Shown in pieces: positions 1-43,950 of a DNA stretch of 64,000 nucleotides (positions are counted from its first letter, which is position 1; each line of letters opens with the position of its first letter). The stretch is from positions 613,053 through 677,052 of the forward strand of contig NZ_JAAHIH010000001.1 of assembly GCF_010671925.1 (NCBI RefSeq), written 5' to 3'. The translations under genes and the position numbers were made by a program. The notes below the pieces were generated by a model. It was given only the letters and a program-made list of their open reading frames with translations. It did no database searches and was not told the DNA's origin. Source of the stretch: Moorena sp. SIOASIH (GTDB lineage Bacteria > Cyanobacteriota > Cyanobacteriia > Cyanobacteriales > Coleofasciculaceae).

Positions 1-486
1 AGAAGGCTCTGCTTGGAATTTCTTGGCTACGCCTTAGGGGTAGCGAGAAGACACAGGAGCATTCTGTAAGACTTAGAAAAAACTGGGTAACAAATCCTAT
101 AAATCCCTAGAAATAGTTATAAATAGTAGGGTGGGTTATTAAAGTACTCTACTAGTAGAGTTACTGGGGAAGTCTTGTCCTAGTTGCTGATCTATTATTT
201 CTGTCAAGAACCTGGGAGTAGTGCAACCCCACGCATAGAATCCGGGGGCTTGTAACCTCAATACTTGACCAGCTTAAGTCCTAAGCGGACTCCGTTGTCA
301 GTAAGTGTTCAAGTTCCTACCTTGGGATGCGTCGCTAGTTCCAAGCTCTAGAACCAAATTGTTAAACATCTGTATCAGGTTAAGGGAGTGCAATTTGGAT
401 AGTACCGACTGACAACATTAGCGTTCGCGGCAGCGTGTGCGAAGCACTCAGCGAACTTAACCCTAGAAATAGGAGTAAACGTAATT
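1..486 (+). ncRNA. Candidate omega-RNA (guide + scaffold) region immediately upstream of iscB
   Basis: 486 nt with no ORF directly 5' of an IscB gene. By established IS200/IS605 OMEGA biology the omega-RNA is encoded here and overlaps the iscB start. An inverted repeat GTTCGC..GCGAAC lies at 424-455. The structure was not folded; the left boundary may lie outside the window. Confidence 0.3.
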
Positions 487-1761
487 ATGCGCGTATTTGT
501 ACTCGACAAAAACAAAAAACCATTAGACCCTTGTCAGCCTGCTAGAGCCAGAATTCTACTCAAACAGGGGAAAGCAAGAGTTCTAAAAAGATACCCGTTC
601 ACAATCATTATGCCAGAATTGGAGGTCAAAAACTGTGTAACCCACGAACATCAACTCAAAATAGACCCCGGTGCTAAGACTACGGGCTTAGCCATTGTCC
701 AGGATAATAAAGTTGTTTGGGGAGCTGAACTAACTCACAGGGGTTTTCAAATCAGAGATGCTCTAATCTCTCGTAGGCGGTTAAGGCGTTCTAGGCGTAA
801 CCGGAAAACTCGTTACCGTCAGCCTAGATTTTTGAATCGAAAACGCTCAGTTGGCTGGCTAGCTCCTAGTTTAATGTCACGAGTTCACAATATCTTGACT
901 TGGACTAAAAAGTTAAGTAGATTATGCCCAATTGTTGGTATTTCTCAGGAGTTAGTCCGTTTTGACACTCAAAAAATGGAAAATCCCGAAATATCTGGTG
1001 TCGAGTATCAGCAAGGCACATTGTACGGGTATGAACTACGGGAGTATCTACTTGAAAAATGGAACCGCCAATGTGCTTACTGTGGAGCAGCTAACACTCC
1101 TCTAGAAATAGAGCATATCAAGCCATTAGCTAGGGGAGGCTCTAACCGAGTCTGTAACTTAGCTATTGCTTGTCACAAATGTAATCAGACGAAAGGAGTT
1201 CAGGAAATCGAACAATTTTTGTCTGGCAAACCTAGTGTCTTAAAGCGAGTTTTGGCTCAGGCGAAAAAGCCTTTAGCTAATGCAGCAGCGGTTAACTCAA
1301 CCAGATGGAAATTATACAATCACCTTAAGTCAACTGGTTTACCGATTGAGACCGGTAGTGGTGGATTAACTAAGTATAATCGTTGCCGTCAAAATCTCCC
1401 TAAAACCCATTGGTTGGATGCCGCTAATGTCGGTAAAGTTGATAACTTGTACATCGAAAGCTATCAACCATTATTGATTACAGCTAAAGGACATGGAACT
1501 CGTCAGATGTGTCGAACGAATAAGTTTGGTTTCCCGACTCGTTATGTCCCCAGGTACAAAGAAGTTAAAGGTTTTCAAACCGGAGATATTGTAAAAGCCA
1601 TTGTAACCAAAGGTAAGAAAATAGGAACCTATACAGGCAGAGTAGCTACTCGCCAAACCGGCTCATTTAATATCTCTACAAAACCTGGACTGGTTCAAGG
1701 AATTAGTCACAAATATTGCAGCGTTATACACCGGAAAGATGGATACTATTATAGTTTCTAA
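487..1761 (+). CDS. iscB: IscB, OMEGA RNA-guided nuclease (PLMP domain, RuvC-I/II/III, bridge helix, HNH)
   Basis: 424 aa. N-terminal MRVFVLDKNKKPLDPCQPARARILLK is a PLMP-like domain. KIDPGAKTTGLAIV is RuvC-I. An Arg-rich bridge helix RRRLRRSRRNRKTRYRQPRF follows. CAYCGAANTPLEIEHIKPLARGGSNRVCNLAIACHKCNQTKG is the HNH domain. HWLDAANVG is RuvC-III. The size is typical of IscB. Confidence 0.8.
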   Translation: MRVFVLDKNKKPLDPCQPARARILLKQGKARVLKRYPFTIIMPELEVKNCVTHEHQLKIDPGAKTTGLAIVQDNKVVWGAELTHRGFQIRDALISRRRLRRSRRNRKTRYRQPRFLNRKRSVGWLAPSLMSRVHNILTWTKKLSRLCPIVGISQELVRFDTQKMENPEISGVEYQQGTLYGYELREYLLEKWNRQCAYCGAANTPLEIEHIKPLARGGSNRVCNLAIACHKCNQTKGVQEIEQFLSGKPSVLKRVLAQAKKPLANAAAVNSTRWKLYNHLKSTGLPIETGSGGLTKYNRCRQNLPKTHWLDAANVGKVDNLYIESYQPLLITAKGHGTRQMCRTNKFGFPTRYVPRYKEVKGFQTGDIVKAIVTKGKKIGTYTGRVATRQTGSFNISTKPGLVQGISHKYCSVIHRKDGYYYSF

Positions 1762-1797
1762 TTCCCAGGAAACTCTGTCAAACTGCTGTTTATGTAA

Positions 1798-1869
1798 GGG
1801 GAGCGACTCCTTCCCATGCATGAATGACAGGGGTTTCCGTCGCTCCCCTTACCAACCCCTATTTTTTTG
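1798..1869 (+). terminator. Hairpin GGGGAGCGAC..GTCGCTCCCC followed by a T7 run; terminator and/or IS right-end structure
   Basis: A 10-bp perfect inverted repeat at 1798-1807 / 1839-1848, with an internal CATGCATG palindrome and a TTTTTTT run at 1863-1869. Confidence 0.4.
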
Positions 1870-4218
1870 ATGATTGACTTGCTTGCGATCGCACTCAGGG
1901 TGCTTTTAGGCTTATTTATTTTTGCGATTGGGCTAACCCTTGCTAAGTGGATTCCCAATCACCGGATTCGAGCTATTACCCAACCAAACCGTTGGTTTAG
2001 GCAAAGGGTTACTCTAGGACTGATGATCCTGACTAGTTTGATGATGCTGGGGTCAATTGTATTAGTCACTGATACTGTTAAGGTAAATTCAGGACAGGCT
2101 GAGGTAGTTAGCTCTCGGAAATACCAGAAGAACATCCGCCTCGGAACAACGAATGTAGCCATCGGAGGTGGTGGTTATGTCACTGGTGTTTACCTCCATC
2201 CACTGGAGAAAGACTTAGTTTATATTCGGACTGATGTTGGTGGCTTCTATCGTTGGGATGAGGGGAAGCAACGTTGGATTCCCCTGACAGAACACTTTCC
2301 CTTCTCTGAGAGAAACTATTATGGAGGAGAAGCACTAGCTGTTGATCCCAATGATCCAACTATTGTCTATATTGCGGCTGGAAAATATCCCTGGGCTGAA
2401 CCGGGAGCACTATTTAAATCTACCGATAAAGGACAAACTTGGACAAAGTTGAACCTAGATCTCAAGATGGGGGCTAACCACAAGAAAAAATGGCTAGGAG
2501 AGAGACTAGCCGTTGATCCGTTCAATTCCAATATTATCCTGTTCGGCTCTAGAGAAGATGGACTTTGGAAATCATCGGATGCTGGTGCTACCTGGCAAAA
2601 CGTGACCTCTTTTGCAGGTAAACCAGATAACAAAATTGGTATTACAGCGATTGTCTTTGATAAACAGGTACCGGGCTTAGTGTATGCTTCTCCCTATGGA
2701 GATGGCATCTACAAATCTACTGACTCTGGGGTCAGCTGGACTCAGGTAGCTGGTAGCCCAAAAACAGTCAATCGCATGGCTGTGGGAAACAATAATATCC
2801 TCTACGTCACCAGTACCAGTAATCCTGGAGTCCACAAGTATGCCAATGGTGTCTGGAAAACCATGAAACCACGGGGCGCTAATCGGATTTTTGGTCCGGT
2901 AAGTGTGAATCCTGCTAATCCTGAGGATATCTTAGTTGCCCTAAACCGCACACAAAAAACTAAATTCTACCGTTCCCTGGATGGCGGCGCTACCTGGAAA
3001 CAGCAGCAGTCTTTTGCTAACAATACTATTCCTTGGTGGCCGAAGAAGTTTTTTGCCAATCATATGGCAGGGATGGAATTTGACCCGAAAGTACCGGGAA
3101 GAGTGTGGTTTACGGATTGGTATGGTGTATGGCGGACAGATGATCTTAATGCTAATCCCGTTGTCTGGACTAACTATGCAGCAGGACACGAGGAAGTGGT
3201 TCCGTTCACTCTAGTTTCACCACCCCGTGGTCCGATACTGGTAAGTGGGGTGGCGGATGTAGATGGTTTCTACCATAACCAAGGATTAGATACTTACCCC
3301 TCTCAACGACTTGGTCTGGGGGAGCCCGGTAAGTCATTCCAGGAAACCTATAGTATTGCTTACTGTGAAACTAAACCCTTGCAGATGGTTCGGGTTGGTG
3401 GTAACCGCTGGAATTCAACCTACACTGGAGCTACTTCCAGCGATGGCGGTCTGACATGGCAACAGTTTGCCTCATTTCCAGACAATACGATGCCGATGCG
3501 GGTCGCTATGTCTGCTACTAACCCCAATCTATTTGTTGTGACAGTTAGTCAAGGTCAGCCACTGCGCACTACGGATCGAGGGGTGACCTGGCAAAAGGTT
3601 TCAGGATTACCCAATGGTCCGGGTGGTCCATGGAACTGGTCTCAATCTTTAGCGGCAGACCCTGTAGATGGCAACACGTTTTATTACTATGCCAAACGGA
3701 AAGTCTATCGTTCCAATGACGGTGGCTCATCTTTTCAAATTGTGAATGATTCACTGCGGAATGAAGGTTGGCATTCCCTGAAAACGGTGCCAGGGGTTAA
3801 GGGTGAAATTTGGCTGAGTCTAGACCGCAAGGGTTTCTATCGCTCTACCGATGGCGGTCAGTCATTCCTTAAGCTGCCTTCAGTAACCAGAGCTCACCTA
3901 TTTGCTTTTGGTAAAGCACCCCAGGGCAGCGACACTCCAGCACTATATATTTATGGCAATATTGATGGAAATGTTCCCAATCTCGGAAATGGGGTTAGAA
4001 ATCAGGAAGCTAGAGGAAGCTTAGCAAGCTCAGCCAAAAGCCGTGCCCAAGAACCAGGAATATTCCAGTCCCTTGACATGGGACGCACGTGGACACGGAT
4101 GGGCGATCGCTCCCGACCAATTGGCAATAGACCTACTGTGATGGAGGCGAGTAAGCAGGAGTTCGGACTTGTCTTTATTGGTACCAATGGTAGGGGAATA
4201 TACTACGGAACACAATAG
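1870..4218 (+). CDS. Membrane-anchored BNR/Asp-box repeat beta-propeller protein (GH74/sialidase-like)
   Basis: Two N-terminal hydrophobic helices. At least nine S-x-D-x-G-x-T-W Asp-box motifs: STDKGQTW, SSDAGATW, STDSGVSW, SLDGGATW, SSDGGLTW, TTDRGVTW, SNDGGSSF, STDGGQSF, SLDMGRTW. The ORF track starts at a TTG at 1867; the first ATG is 1870. Confidence 0.75.
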   Translation: MIDLLAIALRVLLGLFIFAIGLTLAKWIPNHRIRAITQPNRWFRQRVTLGLMILTSLMMLGSIVLVTDTVKVNSGQAEVVSSRKYQKNIRLGTTNVAIGGGGYVTGVYLHPLEKDLVYIRTDVGGFYRWDEGKQRWIPLTEHFPFSERNYYGGEALAVDPNDPTIVYIAAGKYPWAEPGALFKSTDKGQTWTKLNLDLKMGANHKKKWLGERLAVDPFNSNIILFGSREDGLWKSSDAGATWQNVTSFAGKPDNKIGITAIVFDKQVPGLVYASPYGDGIYKSTDSGVSWTQVAGSPKTVNRMAVGNNNILYVTSTSNPGVHKYANGVWKTMKPRGANRIFGPVSVNPANPEDILVALNRTQKTKFYRSLDGGATWKQQQSFANNTIPWWPKKFFANHMAGMEFDPKVPGRVWFTDWYGVWRTDDLNANPVVWTNYAAGHEEVVPFTLVSPPRGPILVSGVADVDGFYHNQGLDTYPSQRLGLGEPGKSFQETYSIAYCETKPLQMVRVGGNRWNSTYTGATSSDGGLTWQQFASFPDNTMPMRVAMSATNPNLFVVTVSQGQPLRTTDRGVTWQKVSGLPNGPGGPWNWSQSLAADPVDGNTFYYYAKRKVYRSNDGGSSFQIVNDSLRNEGWHSLKTVPGVKGEIWLSLDRKGFYRSTDGGQSFLKLPSVTRAHLFAFGKAPQGSDTPALYIYGNIDGNVPNLGNGVRNQEARGSLASSAKSRAQEPGIFQSLDMGRTWTRMGDRSRPIGNRPTVMEASKQEFGLVFIGTNGRGIYYGTQ

Positions 4219-4225
4219 GGTTAAT

Positions 4226-4427
4226 GTAAGCATTCAGCCGTCAGCCGTTGGCCGTAGGCCAAGCTACTTGAGGTGCCGTCAGCTTATTTTTCAAGTACCG
4301 TGCGCTATGGGCATAAACTGTTGCCGTAGCGTGACCACAGGCCTTTAGCCGTTCCCGTAGCGTGCGCGTAGCGCATTAGCCTTTAGCTGATACGCGACAC
4401 GCTGATAGCTGATAGCTGAATGCTTAG
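4226..4427. repeat. MITE-like element bounded by inverted GTAAGCATTCAGC ... GCTGAATGCTTAG termini
   Basis: Terminal inverted repeats at 4226-4238 and 4415-4427. Internal modules CAGCCGT heptamers, GCTACTTGAGGTGC, GCGTAGCGTGCGCGTAGCGC and GCTGATA heptamers recur in similar elements across the window. Confidence 0.5.
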
Positions 4428-4776
4428 GGGTTAATTTTGATTAATTGTTTAAGATTTTTATAAAATTTTCCTTGTAATTTGGGTAATCCTTATTGAATAG
4501 GGAATACACTAAATTACTGACTTGTTTCGTGTTAATCAGGGAATCAAACTATGGCACTCCTGCAATTTTTAATCATTAGCGCCATTTGTATGGTGTTAAT
4601 CAAGTTTGTTGCCTCTTGGTTTGGGTATGGCAACATACCGATACTGAATAAATTAGTGACTATTATTCTCAGCGTCTTCGTGACCTTTGAAATTATTCAG
4701 CTGGTGCAAGCTATAATTATCAAATTTGGTTGAGGGCTGTTCGCCCTTGGCGTTCCCGTAGGGTCGGTTGAGGGAG

Positions 4777-4846
4777 GGTTGAAGGTTGAAGGTTGAAGGT
4801 TGAAGGTTGAAGGTTGAAGGTTGAAGGTTGAAGGTTGAAGGTTGAC
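4777..4846. repeat. Heptamer tandem repeat (GGTTGAA)n, about 10 copies
   Basis: Direct reading of a perfect tandem heptamer array. Confidence 0.9.
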
Positions 4847-4946: not shown

Positions 4947-5062
4947 CCCTACTCCCTACTCCCTACTCCCTACTCCCTACTCCCTACTCCCTACTCCCTA
5001 CTCCCTACTCCCTACTCCCTACTCCCTACTCCCTACTCCCTACTCCCTACTCCCTACTCCCT
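4947..5062. repeat. Heptamer tandem repeat (CTACTCC)n, about 16 copies
   Basis: Direct reading of a perfect tandem heptamer array. Confidence 0.9.
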
Positions 5063-5085: not shown

Positions 5086-7679
5086 GTGTCTGGAAAATCA
5101 AATAGGCTGAAGTAGCACGGGCGACCGAATATTGGCGCACCTGGGAGCGAGAGGAGTAAGACCCTCTCCCCCCCTAGGATTCAGGAGGGTTCCCACTCGA
5201 AGGTGCAAAAGACGATGGACATCTCGGAAAGAAAAATCTAGGATTATCCCGAAGTCTTTTGTATCAGAGCTAGAGAGAAAGTAGGTTATAACCGAACCAC
5301 CGAATAGGAAATAACCGAACAGGGAAAGAACGACAAGGTTGAAGGACATGAATCGTTGTTTAAAGGCACCGTCATCAGTGATAACCCCGCTAAACTCGGT
5401 GATGGGGTTATAGGCTCCAGGATTACATTGCGTGTTAGATGTAATCGAATCCCATGAAGGACCCGGTGTAGAGACGGCAACCTTTAGTTCGCAACTCACA
5501 GGCGCGTAAACGGGTAAGCCGAGATTGAGTCCATATTGTCTGGTCGATAAATATGGTAGCCAAACCGCAAGGAAAGGTATAACTCTCAGTCCGGTAAAAG
5601 TCTGAACCAAGCAAAGGCCGACACCTGAAAAGGAACGGGAATACATAACCGGTCGGATAGAGGGAAGTCCCTCGCTCGAAAGAGCGCTGAATTTCAGAGC
5701 TGATTCCGAGCCAAGAGGAAACGTACTTAATTAACTTAAAGTGTACATGGAAAAGATAGAACCTATATCGCAAGATACGGGTATCGTAACTGAACACACC
5801 ACTGAATGGCACTCCATAAATTGGAAGAAAGCCTACAGACAGGTGAGGAAATTAAGACAACGTATTTTCAAAGCGACACGTGAAGGAAACTGGAAAAAGG
5901 TCAATAAACTCCAAAGATTGATGCTTAGGAGTTACAGCAATGTCCAGATATCCGTCAAAACAGCCACCCAACAAAATAAAGGAAAGAGAACGGCAGGGGT
6001 TGATCAAGAAAAATGCCTGAATCCTCAAGAAAGAGGACAGATGGTAGACAGATTAATCAACCTCAAATCATGGGCAGCTAAACCCACCAAACGCATCTAC
6101 ATACCCAAGGCCAACGGCAAACAAAGACCCTTAGGGATACCAAGTATCACCGACAGATGTCTACAAGCCATAGTCAAAAACACACTAGAACCTGCCTGGG
6201 AAGCCCAGTTTGAAGGAACCTCATACGGGTTCAGACCAGGCAGAAGTGCCCATGATGCCCGACAACGCATCTTCTCAAATATTAAAGGGGAAAAGAATAG
6301 GAAATGGTGGATAGTGGAAGCGGACATAAAAGGATGCTTCGACAATATAGCCCACCAACCACTTCTGGAATCCATCGGAAACTTTCCAGCAAGAAAGCAA
6401 ATTAAAGACTGGTTAAAGGCAGGGTACGTAGATAAAAATACGTTCCACCCGACAGAATCAGGCACCCCACAGGGGGGAATAATAAGCCCACTTCTGGCCA
6501 ACATTGCTTTACACGGACTGGAAACAGAGTTAGGAATAACCTATAAAAGGGTTAAAAGAAACAACAGGGCAAGTTACTGGGAAAATAAATCCAATAGAAC
6601 AATAGCTCGCTTTGCGGATGACTTTGTAATCATAACAGAGAGCAAAGAAGATGCTGTGAACGCTAAGGAAATCACGAAGAAGTGGTTATCCAAAAGAGGG
6701 TTAGAACTATCGGAAGAAAAAAACCAAGATAACTCACCTAACAGAAGGATTCGATTTCCTAGGATGGAACTTCAGGAAATATAAAACAACCGGAAAAAAG
6801 TCAGGGTACATTACACTAATTAAACCCTCCAAGAAAAGCCTGAAGAACATCAAGAAGGAGATAAAAATAGCCATGGCTCAACTAAAGGGTGCATCAGAAG
6901 ATGTGGTGATAGCCAAGTTACAACCTCTCATAAGAGGATGGACCAACTATCACAACGGGACAGTGGCTAAAGAAACCTTCAACAACCTAAATGAATACGT
7001 AAGATGGAAATTAGTAAGATGGTGCCTAAGAAGATACCCAAAAAATAAAAGTTGGGAATGGATTAAAGCCAAACACTTCGGCAAATTCTGCCCTGGAAGG
7101 GAAGATAACCATGTGTTCGGAAGGAAAGACAATTATCTGGACAAAGCACAATGGACAAACATCACCAGGCATGTGCTAGTAACCCACAACTACTCTAAGG
7201 ACGACCCTGAACTCCAAGAATATTGGAAGAAAAGGCAAGAAAAAAATGGGAAAAAAGCAGCAGAAGGAGCACTATCCAAAGGTAGGAATAAGATAGCCTT
7301 AAGGCAAAAATACACCTGCCCATACTGCGGACAACCACTTGGAGAATATAATAATGTTCATCTACACCACATTATCCCTAGGGAAAATGGGGGAAAAGAT
7401 GAAGCAGGGAACCTAGTATATGTCCACGAAGATTGTCACAGGACCATCCACGCCTTGGGAGCCAGCAATCCTGAGATACAGGAAAAACTGTATCGAGCGA
7501 TAAAAACCCGTCCAAGGAACCGGAAGAAAAGCCAAAAGGTACAAACCCGGTTATCCAAAGACTAAAAGCTGGATGAAAAGATAACGTGTATAAAGGAATT
7601 GGTTGCGCCGTGTGCTTGGTAACTTGCTCGCACGGTGCTTAGGGGGCGAAGAGGGAGCAATCCCTCCGACCTACCCAAT
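5086..7679 (+). mobile_element. Group II intron, about 2.6 kb, with its intron-encoded protein in domain IV
   Basis: An RT-X-HNH ORF is flanked by non-coding RNA-like sequence. A domain V-like hairpin GCGCCGTGTGC-TTGGTAACTTGC-TCGCACGGTGC lies at 7604-7638. A domain VI-like segment ends in ..CCAAT at 7679. The proposed 5' end GTGTC at 5086 and the 3' end are inferred from reconstructing the interrupted dhaL reading frame: joining 5085|7680 restores ..GHQDPVLETIA-stop on the minus strand. Boundaries are within a few nt. Confidence 0.6.
5741..7565 (+). pseudogene. Group II intron-encoded reverse transcriptase/maturase/HNH endonuclease, split by a +1 frameshift in an A7 run (6717-6723)
   Basis: ORF 5741-6784 carries RT domains 0-7 (RPLGIPSITDRCLQA, FRPGRSAHDA, FADDFVII). 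ORF 6873-7565 carries the X/maturase motif RGWTNYH and an HNH domain (CPYCGQ..HHIIPRENGG..HEDCH). Deleting one A from GAAGAAAAAAACC restores the canonical ..LSEEKTKITHLTEGFDFLGWNFRKY.. junction. This is either a genuine pseudogene or a homopolymer sequencing error. Confidence 0.8.
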
Positions 7680-24909: not shown

Positions 24910-25506
24910 ATGGCATTAGTACCTATCCGTAAGGCGGTCGAACTTACAGGACTATCTCCAAACACACTACGGAAGTATGCAGACAATGGCACCATTCGAT
25001 GCGAGAGAACCCCAGGAGGGACTAGACTCTTTGACTCAACAGATCTTCGCAGTTTTGGAAAAGCTCGAAGGGCTAGTAGACCCAACAATGTCACCATCTG
25101 CTACTGCCGAGTCAGTAGCAGTAAACAACGAGACGATCTCGCTCGCCAAGTCGCCTATCTGCATTCCCTCTTCCCCGAAGCAGAAATCATCTTTGACATC
25201 GGTTCCGGCCTCAACTACAAAAGAAAGGGGCTTAGAACCATACTGGAGCGAGTTGTCTGCGGAGATAAGCTCACGATTGTTGTTGCCTGTAAAGACCGAC
25301 TTACCCGATTCGGGTTTGAACTCATTGAGTACTTGGTCGGTCTCAACGGTGGAAAAATCCTGGTTCTCGACCAGTCTAAAAACTGCCCAGAATCAGAGCT
25401 TACCGCAGATCTTCTCTCCATCATTCACGTCTTCTCCTGTCGGGTTCACGGACTCAGGAAATACGGTCAGAAAATCAAAGAAGATTCGTCTGTTCCTAAA
25501 CCCTAG
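24910..25506 (+). CDS. tnpA: IS607-type TnpA: MerR-like HTH + serine recombinase (resolvase) catalytic domain
   Basis: HTH LVPIRKAVELTGLSPNTLRKYADNG. Resolvase motifs ICYCRVSSSKQRDDLARQ (catalytic Ser) and VVACKDRLTRFG. Confidence 0.8.
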   Translation: MALVPIRKAVELTGLSPNTLRKYADNGTIRCERTPGGTRLFDSTDLRSFGKARRASRPNNVTICYCRVSSSKQRDDLARQVAYLHSLFPEAEIIFDIGSGLNYKRKGLRTILERVVCGDKLTIVVACKDRLTRFGFELIEYLVGLNGGKILVLDQSKNCPESELTADLLSIIHVFSCRVHGLRKYGQKIKEDSSVPKP

Positions 25507-26581
25507 TCAGCGATCGCTAGTCCGTAAGTGGTTCGGAGTGTCCCGTTATGTTTTCAATAAAACAGTTAAAATTCTCCAGAGTGGCGAAGTAAAAGCCAAC
25601 TGGAAAGCCATTAAAACTGGTATTCTAAATGACCTACCCGACTGGTGCAAGGAAGTGCCTTATCAGATCAAATCGATAGGGATTAAGGATGCTTGCACTG
25701 CTGTCAGGGAGGCTAAGAAGAAGTACAAGAAAACATTAGATATAAACCGGGTAAGGTTTAGATCTCGAAAGAATCCTATTCAGTCTTGCTATATCCCAAA
25801 GTCAGCCATTTCAGATGTAGGGATGTATCACACTAAATTAGGCGAGCTAAAGTATTCAGAGCCTCTTCCAATAGAAGTGTGCGACAGCCGACTAACCAGC
25901 AATAATGGGGACTTCTATTTAGTAGTTCCCCATAAAGTAACAAAAACGAATGCCGAAAACCAAGGTAGAGTAGTTGCTTTAGACCCTGGAGTCAGAACTT
26001 TCATTACTTTTTTCAGTGAGACATCTGTCGGGAAGATTGGGCATGGGGACTTTTCAAGAATCCAGCGACTCTGCCAACACCTAGACAACCTACTGTCTAA
26101 AATCAGTAAAGCTAAAGGTGGGCAAAAGCGTCGGATGAAGAAAGCCGCCAGGCGAATGGTTATTAAGATTCAAAATCTAGTCAACGAATTGCACCATAAG
26201 ACGGCTAGATTCTTGGTTGATAACTTCGATGTAATTCTTATCCCTACTTTTGAGACATCTCAGATGTCAAGGAAAGGGAACAGGAAAATTAGATCTAAAA
26301 CCGTTCGTAATATGCTCACCTTCGCTCATTACCGTTTCAAAGAATTTCTAAAACATAAAGCCCAGGAAATGGGGAAACTGGTAATAGATGTCTGTGAGGC
26401 TTACACCAGTAAGACTGTTAGTTGGACAGGTGAATTGCTCAACATTGGTGGAAGCAAAATAATCACATCGAAAGTTGATGGTCGATCTATGGATCGAGAC
26501 ATTAACGGCGCTCGGGGGATATTCCTCAGAGCCTTGGGAGATACCCCCTGGTTGCGAGAGCAACTTGCATTAGTGAGCTAA
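25472..26581 (+). CDS. tnpB: TnpB (OrfB) RuvC-like RNA-guided nuclease-family protein of the IS607 element
   Basis: KIRLFLNPSQRSLVRKWFGVSRYVFN is a typical TnpB N-terminus. ALDPGVRTF is RuvC-I. The C-terminal DINGARGI follows a zinc-finger-like region. The start codon is uncertain: there is no in-frame ATG near the conserved N-terminus, so it is probably a GTG/TTG start overlapping the tnpA end. Confidence 0.75.
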   Translation, partial: KSKKIRLFLNPSQRSLVRKWFGVSRYVFNKTVKILQSGEVKANWKAIKTGILNDLPDWCKEVPYQIKSIGIKDACTAVREAKKKYKKTLDINRVRFRSRKNPIQSCYIPKSAISDVGMYHTKLGELKYSEPLPIEVCDSRLTSNNGDFYLVVPHKVTKTNAENQGRVVALDPGVRTFITFFSETSVGKIGHGDFSRIQRLCQHLDNLLSKISKAKGGQKRRMKKAARRMVIKIQNLVNELHHKTARFLVDNFDVILIPTFETSQMSRKGNRKIRSKTVRNMLTFAHYRFKEFLKHKAQEMGKLVIDVCEAYTSKTVSWTGELLNIGGSKIITSKVDGRSMDRDINGARGIFLRALGDTPWLREQLALVS

Positions 26582-42414: not shown

Positions 42415-43950
42415 TCGCGCAGCGGAGGCCGTAGGCCAAAAGCGTGGCCTACGGCCAGGTCGTGGCTTCCAGCTTCACGGAAGAATGCCTCAACTTGGAC
42501 GGACGTCCACGTCTTGGTCTTACTTCTTCGACCCTGGCGTTGACCTCCCCCGTCCCAGAGGAGGATAGCATTCTGATCCCTTCTGCTCTAATATTCTTTG
42601 CCGCATTACCATCTCTATCATGATGAGTGCCACAGCTTGGACAAACCCAAGACCTTACATGTAGCGGTAACTCTTTGATTCGGTAATGACAATTAGAGCA
42701 GGTTTTGGAACTGGGAAACCATCGATCTATCTCAACTAGTACTTTTCCTTCTTTTTCGCATTTATAAGAAAGAAAATTAACAAAATTTCCCCAACTTAGA
42801 TCAGATATTGCTTTAGCTAATTTGTGGTTACGAACCATGCCCTTGACGTTTAGGTTTTCGACTACCACTACCTGGTTATTGTCAACTATTTTTCTAGATA
42901 GCTTATGCAAGTAGTCTTGGCGGACATTTCCAATCCGTTCGTATACCTTAGCTACAATCTTTTTGGCCTTTTTGCGTCCATTGCTCCCTTTCTTTTTTCG
43001 GGCAGCAATACGCTGCTTTTTCGCTAGTTTATTTTCGTACTTTGCTAAATGCTTGGGATTCCCAAATTTAGAAGTTTTTTCACCATCGTAGGTGATCGCA
43101 AAATCTTTAATACCTAAATCAATACCAATCACTTTACCTGTGGCCTTTGGCCACGCTGCGCGAACAATAGATGGCTTTACGTCGTTCGAGTCGTATTGCA
43201 TCAGTACAGAGGCATAGTATTTACCGGAAGGAGTCTTGCTGACTGTGACAGTTTTGATTTCTCCATCTAATGGTCGGTGGATTATTGCTTTAACAACTCC
43301 CAACTTTCCGGGAAATTTGAGACAGTCACCTACCTGTTTTACGTACTGTGGATATTGGATTGATTGACGGTGATGATATGACTTGAATTTAGGATATTTA
43401 GCTCTACCTTGGCCTATGGCCACGCTACGCGAACAAAAAAGTTTTGATATCCACGACTAAGATTGAGACTGACCGATTGCAAAATCTGAGAGTAACAATC
43501 CTTTAGCCATACGGTTTTCTCGTCTTTTTTGAGTTTTGGCAACATAGCATTAAGTGCAGAACGAGACAATCCTTTCCCGGTTTCCTTGTAGGTTTCTATG
43601 CACTGATTTAGAGCATAATTCCACCACCAACGAGCACAGCCAAAGTGCTGAGCAAGTATATGAACTTGCTCTTGTGTGGGGTAAATTCGGATCTTTACGG
43701 CTTGATGTCTCATTTTTCCTGCATTTGCTATCGACCTATATATCATTATATGTCATTTGTGATAAATCGTCAATTCATCAGCAAAGGTTTTGAGAGGGCT
43801 ATCCATCCTAGAGACGAAACCTGATTGTTAGTGGAGCCTTTATGGTTAGTCGGCTATGCATAAAAGGGTTAAAACTTTTTGATTAAGGCTCCACTATCCT
43901 TACGGTAACTTCAACACCTGGACGTTCGCGCAGCGTGGCCAAAGGCCAGG
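42415..43950 (-). mobile_element. IS200/IS605-family TnpB-only (IS1341-like) element with hairpin repeats at both ends
   Basis: The tnpB reading frames are flanked by GTTCGCGCAGCG-GTGGCC-loop-GGCCAC-type hairpins at 42420-42470 and 43924-43948. Confidence 0.45.
42449..43746 (-). pseudogene. tnpB: tnpB split into two ORFs by insertion of a 25-nt REP-like hairpin repeat
   Basis: The N-terminal ORF 43414-43746 (KIRIYPTQEQ..) ends ..FVRVAWP at a TAG created by the repeat (43410-43437, TGGCCTATGGCCACGCTACGCGAACAA). The C-terminal ORF 42449-43423 carries RuvC motifs (IGIDLGIKDF, VVVENLNVKGM) and a zinc finger (CSNC..CPSCG). A second copy of the repeat at 43141-43167 is in frame and encodes VRAAWPKA. 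Confidence 0.75.

Follow-up and report, generated by a model that had tools for sequence, protein, structure and literature searches.

A probable non-autonomous IscB insertion sequence abutting a host start codon in Moorena, delimited by occupied and empty alleles

The stretch of DNA analysed here, referred to below as the window, comprises 64,000 nucleotides of the genome of the cyanobacterium Moorena sp. SIOASIH (contig NZ_JAAHIH010000001.1, positions 613,053 to 677,052), and it carries near its left edge a gene for IscB, the RNA-guided nuclease that is the ancestor of Cas9. We conclude that positions 203–1869 of the window very probably constitute a non-autonomous insertion sequence of the IS200/IS605 family (ISC-type; HEARO, OMEGA), 1667 bp in length and made up of an omega RNA scaffold, the iscB gene and a subterminal hairpin, all read on the forward strand. 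An initial annotation of the same DNA had described an intact IscB element, and this interpretation is supported in its essentials, the points that could have told against it having come out in its favour when examined. The element is an intact and ordinary member of a well-known family, with a protein already named by standard pipelines and an RNA already in Rfam, and its only unusual features seem to be its position exactly on a host start codon and its seemingly recent spread between related Moorena strains.

The ends of the element were determined by comparison of occupied and empty alleles in 13 Moorena assemblies, as well as from the points at which paralogous copies diverge. The site is occupied in four of these assemblies and empty in the other nine (L041–L047, L049 and L050), which were reached through orthologues of the gene downstream of the element and in which just ~160 nt separate that gene from the methyltransferase gene upstream. 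The empty allele in L041 reads ...CTGATCTATTATTTCT/ATGATTGAC, where the slash marks the junction (or, with longer upstream context, ...GTTGCTGATCTATTATTTCT/ATGATTGAC), and together with the eight further empty assemblies it sets the ends at 203 and 1869. Presence and absence of the element are seamless, with ...TTATTTCT/ATGATTG... in the empty allele corresponding to ...TTATTTCT followed by 203–1869 and then ATGATTG... in the occupied one, and the comparison shows an element that has no terminal inverted repeats and has made no target-site duplication. Paralogues at L003, L005 and L006, which are located in other flanks, part from the window sequence exactly at the element ends, and all three terminate in ...TTTTTG/ATGA. 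A search for further copies and empty sites had been proposed in the initial annotation as a means of defining the ends, and both were found; of the span of 1–1869 given there the right-hand limit is exact, whereas the real start lies at 203. Window bases 1–37 are the 3' end of the methyltransferase gene, which is co-oriented with the element, and 38–202 are host intergenic DNA. The 486 nt preceding iscB, which had been regarded as free of open reading frames (ORFs), include this gene end, and contain otherwise only mechanical minus-strand ORFs of 40–46 aa. Moorena bouillonii PNG5-198 (L002) encodes an IscB protein that is 100% identical to that of the window, and two 83%-identical paralogues are located in the same genome. 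We considered L002 as a second locus, the first 100 nt of the window having no exact match there, and rejected this when pairwise alignment identified it as the orthologous locus in another strain.

The four bases directly after the element, ATGA at 1870–1873, are outside it and represent the presumed target or transposon-adjacent motif (TAM), which reads TCAT on the transposase strand and has a single occurrence in the empty sites. ATGA adjoins the iscB-distal end in every related family examined, including those of Moorena, Marinobacter and Anaerolineae as well as the single-copy families. Weinberg et al. are said to have described in 2009 that HEARO elements integrate next to ATGA or GTGA. 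In the window the ATG of this motif is also the start codon of a gene encoding a 782-aa BNR/Sortilin-type protein (1870–4218), and the gene call in the empty assemblies begins at that same ATG. At the other end, the final 16 nt of host 5' untranslated region (UTR) or intergenic DNA, CTGATCTATTATTTCT at 187–202, lie directly 5' of the scaffold. IscB guides sit 5' of the scaffold and outside the transposon (Meers et al., bioRxiv 10.1101/2023.03.14.532601), and because the empty sites place the start of the element at 203, it is these host bases that would encode the guide, with the 16-nt length being taken over from characterised IscBs; the sequence occurs once in the window. It should be noted that in transposase terms the omega RNA end is the right end of such elements and the hairpin end is the left end (Meers et al., bioRxiv 10.1101/2023.03.14.532601).

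The iscB gene (487–1761) encodes a protein of 424 aa, which is within the ~400–500 aa expected of an IscB lacking a REC lobe. The complete IscB architecture ascribed to it is borne out by NCBIfam NF040563 ('RNA-guided endonuclease IscB'), which matches over profile positions 1–314 of 314 with 470 bits against a cut-off of 175, by Pfam RRXRR, which matches over the whole profile at residues 3–177 (2e-73), and by three HNH models (Pfam HNH and HNH_5 at residues 196–238). The protein has a PLMP-type N-terminus in which the motif itself reads PLDP, not PLMP, and of which residues 3–114 align to the N-terminus of OgeuIscB, together with a split RuvC, an Arg-rich bridge helix at ~95–121 and the HNH domain. 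Amongst the solved structures the best match is TbaIscB (PDB 9K30; 2.7e-43, or 1.1e-69 with a profile), to which residues 1–315 align across the PLMP, RuvC, bridge-helix and HNH regions; the 9K30 chain is, however, 1068 aa long and IscB-like only from residue 496, unlike the minimal 424-aa form found here. OgeuIscB (PDB 7XHT and 7UTN) matches at ~1e-25. Degeneracy of the RuvC or HNH residues was looked for on alignment, and D60, E155, H210, H308 and D311 are all kept. D60, E155, H308 and D311 of the split RuvC align to OgeuIscB catalytic positions, with D60 corresponding to D61 and E155 to E193, and H210 of the HNH domain corresponds to H247. We take H308 and D311 to be H340 and D343 of OgeuIscB, the RuvC-III H..D pairing being given by the alignment and the 340/343 numbering being assumed. 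The HNH domain also has N224, N233 and the zinc cysteines C196/C199/C229/C232, with both CxxC pairs intact. In an alignment of 17 relatives, D60, E155, H308, N224, N233 and the four zinc cysteines are invariant, and conservation is 90% or more at H210 and D311. On these alignments the active-site residues are intact, and the protein would be expected to have RNA-guided cleavage activity.

A covariance-model scan located the omega RNA that had been predicted upstream of iscB, and did so at 203–461 on the same strand as the gene. The match to HEARO (Rfam RF02033) reaches 117.4 bits where the gathering score is 83 (E 5e-25), covers model positions 1–211 of 211 and describes a scaffold with a P1 stem (203–208 paired with 265–270), a pseudoknot and a multi-stem core, which ends 26 nt before the iscB ATG at 487. 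The arrangement of RNA followed by iscB is repeated in 17 other loci, and RNAalifold analysis of 13 diverse relatives gave 47 consensus pairs, 34 of which are kept through changes on both sides. The scaffold is followed at 462–475 by a small GNRA-loop hairpin, CCUA-GAAA-UAGG (the hairpin itself at 462–473), which we read directly from the sequence and which probably serves as the omega RNA's terminal hairpin. Its loop is GAAA, GCAA or GUAA among the Moorena copies and keeps the form GNAA in other families, where the stem shows covariation, as in CCC-GCAA-GGG and CUGC-GAAA-GCAG. The 3' arm of the hairpin overlaps the iscB Shine–Dalgarno sequence AGGAG (471–475), and this suggests a coupling of RNA folding or IscB binding to iscB translation.

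The distribution of the element among the Moorena strains differs from that of the DNA around it. By their flanks the four occupied strains belong to two clades, which are 3.8–4.1% apart in the downstream gene, and they are not monophyletic on that flanking gene; between the occupied strains of the two clades the element varies at just two of 1642 aligned positions (0.12%), compared with 94 differing sites in 2550 for the flanks (Fisher p = 2e-18). Such a near-identical element in diverged strains suggests a recent homing-like spread. We give somewhat less than even weight to the alternative that the near-identity results from ordinary homologous recombination in a highly mosaic population and not from homing driven by IscB. 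In keeping with this alternative, sequence beyond the shared tract is also mosaic in the left flank, on a scale of 100 bp; L048, for example, is similar to L049 in its distal-left part. However, the haplotype shared with L002 and L048 (window 89–1879) covers just ~100 nt of the left flank and fewer than 11 nt of the right, where it stops within 10 bp of the element; L041 and PAL, to which the occupied strains of clade B are most closely related by their flanks, lack the element; and the empty alleles of these two, as well as that of L049, match the guide at 16 of 16 positions. A short shared tract and a guide-matching empty allele are what would be expected of homing, in which a guided cut is repaired from an incoming occupied allele. 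Other empty alleles have motif-proximal mismatches in the target, with one in JHB (L043 2985–3000) and three in the 3L clade (L044–L047 2985–3000), and if the homing model holds these would be cleavage-resistant. We also note that another RRXRR/IscB gene is present in M. producens PAL (L042 7849–8349), a few kb downstream of the site that the element occupies in the window and that is empty in this strain.

The coincidence of target motif and start codon is not limited to the window. At 9–11 of ~18 independent sites of this IscB clade, the ATGA after the element provides the start codon of an intact and co-oriented host gene (the window at 1870–1873, and L005, L006, L009, L011, L016, L021–L024 and L029). 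The lower figure is the sum of eight profile-supported sites and the window's own gene, and two further sites are probable. Profile support was obtained by alignment with NCBIfam profiles, which for eight of the ten ORFs tested downstream of elements begins at profile positions 1–4; the eight are PfkA, MutS2, a FixJ-type regulator, PpsR, acetoacetate-CoA ligase, GatD, TIGR03643 and a C45 peptidase. By way of background, an ORF of 70 aa or more opens at just 17.5% of the ATGA motifs in the same DNA, and at 5% the motif is also the first start of that ORF; on a lenient null this gives the excess of start codons a P of ~4e-5. Several of the guides contain the displaced host Shine–Dalgarno sequence. 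It is possible, though we would put it a little below an even chance, that the clade 'docks' on host start codons and that the element described here carries a natural footprint of RNA-guided homing. If so, at a start codon the promoter and 5' UTR of the host gene would supply both the transcription of the omega RNA and its guide, and the pattern, should it hold up, would explain how the guide is transcribed in an element that has no guide promoter of its own. The literature that could be searched, which did not include the key older papers, yielded no description of this pattern.

Towards the other end of the element, beyond the iscB stop codon, there is a subterminal hairpin at 1794–1852 with a perfect 14-bp stem (1794–1807 paired with 1839–1852), a 31-nt loop and a DNA-fold z of −5.2 to −6.1. 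The foot of this hairpin is 17 nt from the element end, and the terminal 17 nt, CAACCCCTATTTTTTTG at 1853–1869, are conserved in the paralogues up to the junction set by the empty sites; they contain the heptamer CAACCCC, which is also found near the other end at 223–229. After a 9-nt spacer the hairpin is followed by a run of seven Ts (1862–1868), and the initial annotation had suggested that the GC-rich hairpin and T-run may mark the right end of the element. The hairpin is indeed located in the end region, although 17 nt inside and at what is the left end in transposase terms, but with its 9-nt spacer and 31-nt loop, and with no call made for the hairpin and T-run in the terminator scan, it is not a canonical terminator. 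An intrinsic terminator of iscB which has no role in transposition is in our view an unlikely explanation. The very stable GC-rich stem, the T-run behind it and the location past the stop codon do speak for a terminator, and the hairpin may also attenuate transcription. Against this, besides the spacer, the loop and the lack of a scan call, a strong terminator at this point would shut down the host gene that starts directly at the element end, the stem in L003 and L004 is kept through compensatory change (GAGCGAC paired with GTCGCTC becoming GAGAAAC paired with GTTTCTC), and the loop in L003 tolerates an insertion of ~100 nt. The 17-nt distance to the end also recalls the subterminal transposase-binding hairpins that are typical of IS608-type elements, and from these sequence features we consider the hairpin more likely to be the TnpA-binding hairpin of the transposon left end than a terminator. 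The L003 loop insertion (~4340–4445) itself holds an inverted repeat, and its end, CTTACGGTAACTTCAA, resembles the window near 43900, beside a TnpB gene.

A further feature of the omega RNA is a GC-rich insertion of 25 nt, TTCGCGGCAGCGTGTGCGAAGCACT at 424–448, which is extra to the HEARO consensus and is located in the 3' tail, in a region that the model treats as unpaired. The motif GTTCGCGGCAGCGTG at 423–437, which had been noted earlier upstream of iscB and linked to a REP-like hairpin family elsewhere in the window, is present as described, but it belongs to this non-native insertion; it is unique in the window at up to two mismatches, and the tie to the REP-like family is weak because the looser relatives at ~29575, 31224 and 43923 are only partial matches. 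The insertion is missing from the orthologous PNG5-198 copy (L002), is carried by L001 and L048, and is found overall in three of the four occupied strains. Paralogue L006, which is 81% identical, has a version of it in the same position (2937–2961) with a 2-nt difference, and a search for further copies at up to six substitutions recovered only those in the window, L001 and L006. This recurrence could be the result of site-specific insertion, gene conversion or repeated loss. Elhai et al. are said to have described very small dispersed repeats in cyanobacteria in 2008, and the insertion resembles these.

A number of observations weigh against our reading of 203–1869 as an IscB insertion sequence. 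Searches by regular expression, and by tblastn with IS200 and IS608 TnpA sequences and no positive control, covered the window together with the 3-kb flanks of loci L001–L040 (the IscB-related loci) and detected no Y1 TnpA. No sigma-70-like promoter was found in 1–202 by a sigma-70 scan of 1–2100, and across 1–2100 such sites are no more numerous than in shuffles. The C-terminal ~80 aa of IscB (~343–424) are alignable to no solved IscB, even with a profile; they are conserved among the 17 relatives and presumably form the TAM-interacting domain. The single-sequence fold of 187–490 is no more stable than shuffles (z −0.15), so that the structural support for the RNA comes from the covariance model and the covariation, and the centroid of this fold recovers the HEARO helices. 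The DNA hairpin on the omega RNA side (the right end) is weak, with a z of −0.9 to −1.6. Finally, the 25-nt insertion reduces the HEARO score from the 136.1 bits of the PNG5-198 copy to 117.4 bits, and it could impair the RNA. We regard the element as non-autonomous because iscB is its only ORF and no TnpA was found, a condition that is common among IscB elements (Meers et al., bioRxiv 10.1101/2023.03.14.532601). We note in addition that TATAAAT boxes can be seen at 98–104 and 118–124, by eye only.

From these observations it might be argued that the element is an immobile or decayed relic, with an intact-looking gene, an omega RNA disabled by an insertion that costs 19 bits of HEARO score, and neither movement nor homing in the absence of a detectable TnpA or promoter, but this is quite improbable given that the PNG5-198 protein is 100% identical and all catalytic residues are retained, that the element shows signs of recent spread even though three of the four occupied strains bear the insertion, that paralogue L006 pairs the same insertion with an intact 432-aa ORF, and that the insertion affects a region which the HEARO model does not pair.

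The features of the element would be consistent with the following mode of action for a mobile, homing IscB insertion sequence. As the guide is encoded outside the element, transcription must begin in host DNA (Meers et al., bioRxiv 10.1101/2023.03.14.532601). A transcript initiated there, from a host promoter, would run across the final 16 nt of the host's 5' UTR (187–202), which would act as the guide, and continue into the scaffold (203 to ~475) and the iscB ORF. The complex of IscB and omega RNA might then recognise a match to the guide and, after it, ATGA, a combination that would be found only at the empty site, CTGATCTATTATTTCT/ATGA. The occupied allele would be spared from its own cleavage because the scaffold and not ATGA follows the guide match. 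HNH and RuvC would cut the empty allele, or the donor joint left by excision by the transposase, and homologous repair from an occupied copy would reinstall the element. Transposition itself would need a Y1 TnpA provided in trans and acting on the 1794–1852 hairpin and the TCAT target. We infer host-promoter transcription, the 16-nt guide, cleavage, the role of the hairpin and homing from the arrangement of the element and its relatives.

Comparison with known systems places the element close to GstIscB of the ISGst family from Geobacillus stearothermophilus (bioRxiv 10.1101/2023.03.14.532601), which is likewise an IS200/IS605-family element encoding only iscB. GstIscB has TTCAT on the 5' side of its left end, or ATGAA if read in the orientation of IscB, compared with ATGA(T/A) for the Moorena element, and in both, as in IscB elements generally (Meers et al., bioRxiv 10.1101/2023.03.14.532601), the upstream gene is co-oriented. 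In contrast to GstIscB, the Moorena element is found in a cyanobacterial host, its cognate TnpA was not found, and its omega RNA has a 25-nt insertion. It shares with OgeuIscB (PDB 7XHT, 7UTN and 8CSZ) the same domain order and catalytic residues and the multi-stem, pseudoknotted type of RNA, and ATGA fits NWRR, the first four positions of the NWRRNA that is given for OgeuIscB in PMC12660989. However, OgeuIscB is larger (496 aa compared with 424 aa), it matches in just two stretches (at ~1e-25), and the C-terminal ~80 aa do not align. The element has the same RNA and ORF families as the HEARO elements of Arthrospira and other cyanobacteria, which are also multi-copy in filamentous cyanobacteria (RF02033; Goltsman et al. 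2022, PMC9755519), but unlike these the Moorena copy carries the 25-nt insertion and has a documented exact empty site and strain distribution. As a natural example it is well defined, in that its exact ends, its guide and target motif and the corresponding empty alleles are documented over 13 assemblies belonging to a single genus. Should they hold up, the contrast in divergence between element and flanks and the start-codon pattern would be population-level evidence for the 'cut-and-copy' homing model, the demonstration of which has come until now mainly from assays in E. coli. In addition, a compact 424-aa IscB whose omega RNA has a site that naturally tolerates a 25-nt insertion could inform guide-RNA engineering.

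Other mobile elements are found in the remainder of the window. An IS607-type pair at 24910–26581 consists of a MerR-helix-turn-helix serine recombinase (24910–25506) which overlaps a 534-aa TnpB (24977–26581), and a second TnpB is located on the minus strand at 42449–43423, with OrfB_IS605 and a Cas12f1-like TNB domain and with its N-terminal helix-turn-helix part apparently in a separate frame upstream. As IscB is accompanied by these two TnpBs, the window has three different OMEGA-class nucleases. A group II intron at 5741–7679 is split into two ORFs, a reverse transcriptase (5741–6784) and a maturase/HNH part (6873–7565), and ends with an Rfam Intron_gpII domain at 7603–7679. Near-identical copies of a PTS/DhaM N-terminal segment are present at ~17.8 kb and ~26.7 kb. 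Two perfect heptamer arrays follow closely on the 3' side of the BNR gene, GGTTGAA x 9.9 (4777–4845) and CCCTACT x 16.6 (4947–5062), and GGTTGAG/GGTTGAA arrays akin to those of the window are found upstream in L002. Amongst the related loci, Marinobacter L018 has a second HEARO start after the first IscB element (276 and 2250), in what is a tandem arrangement.

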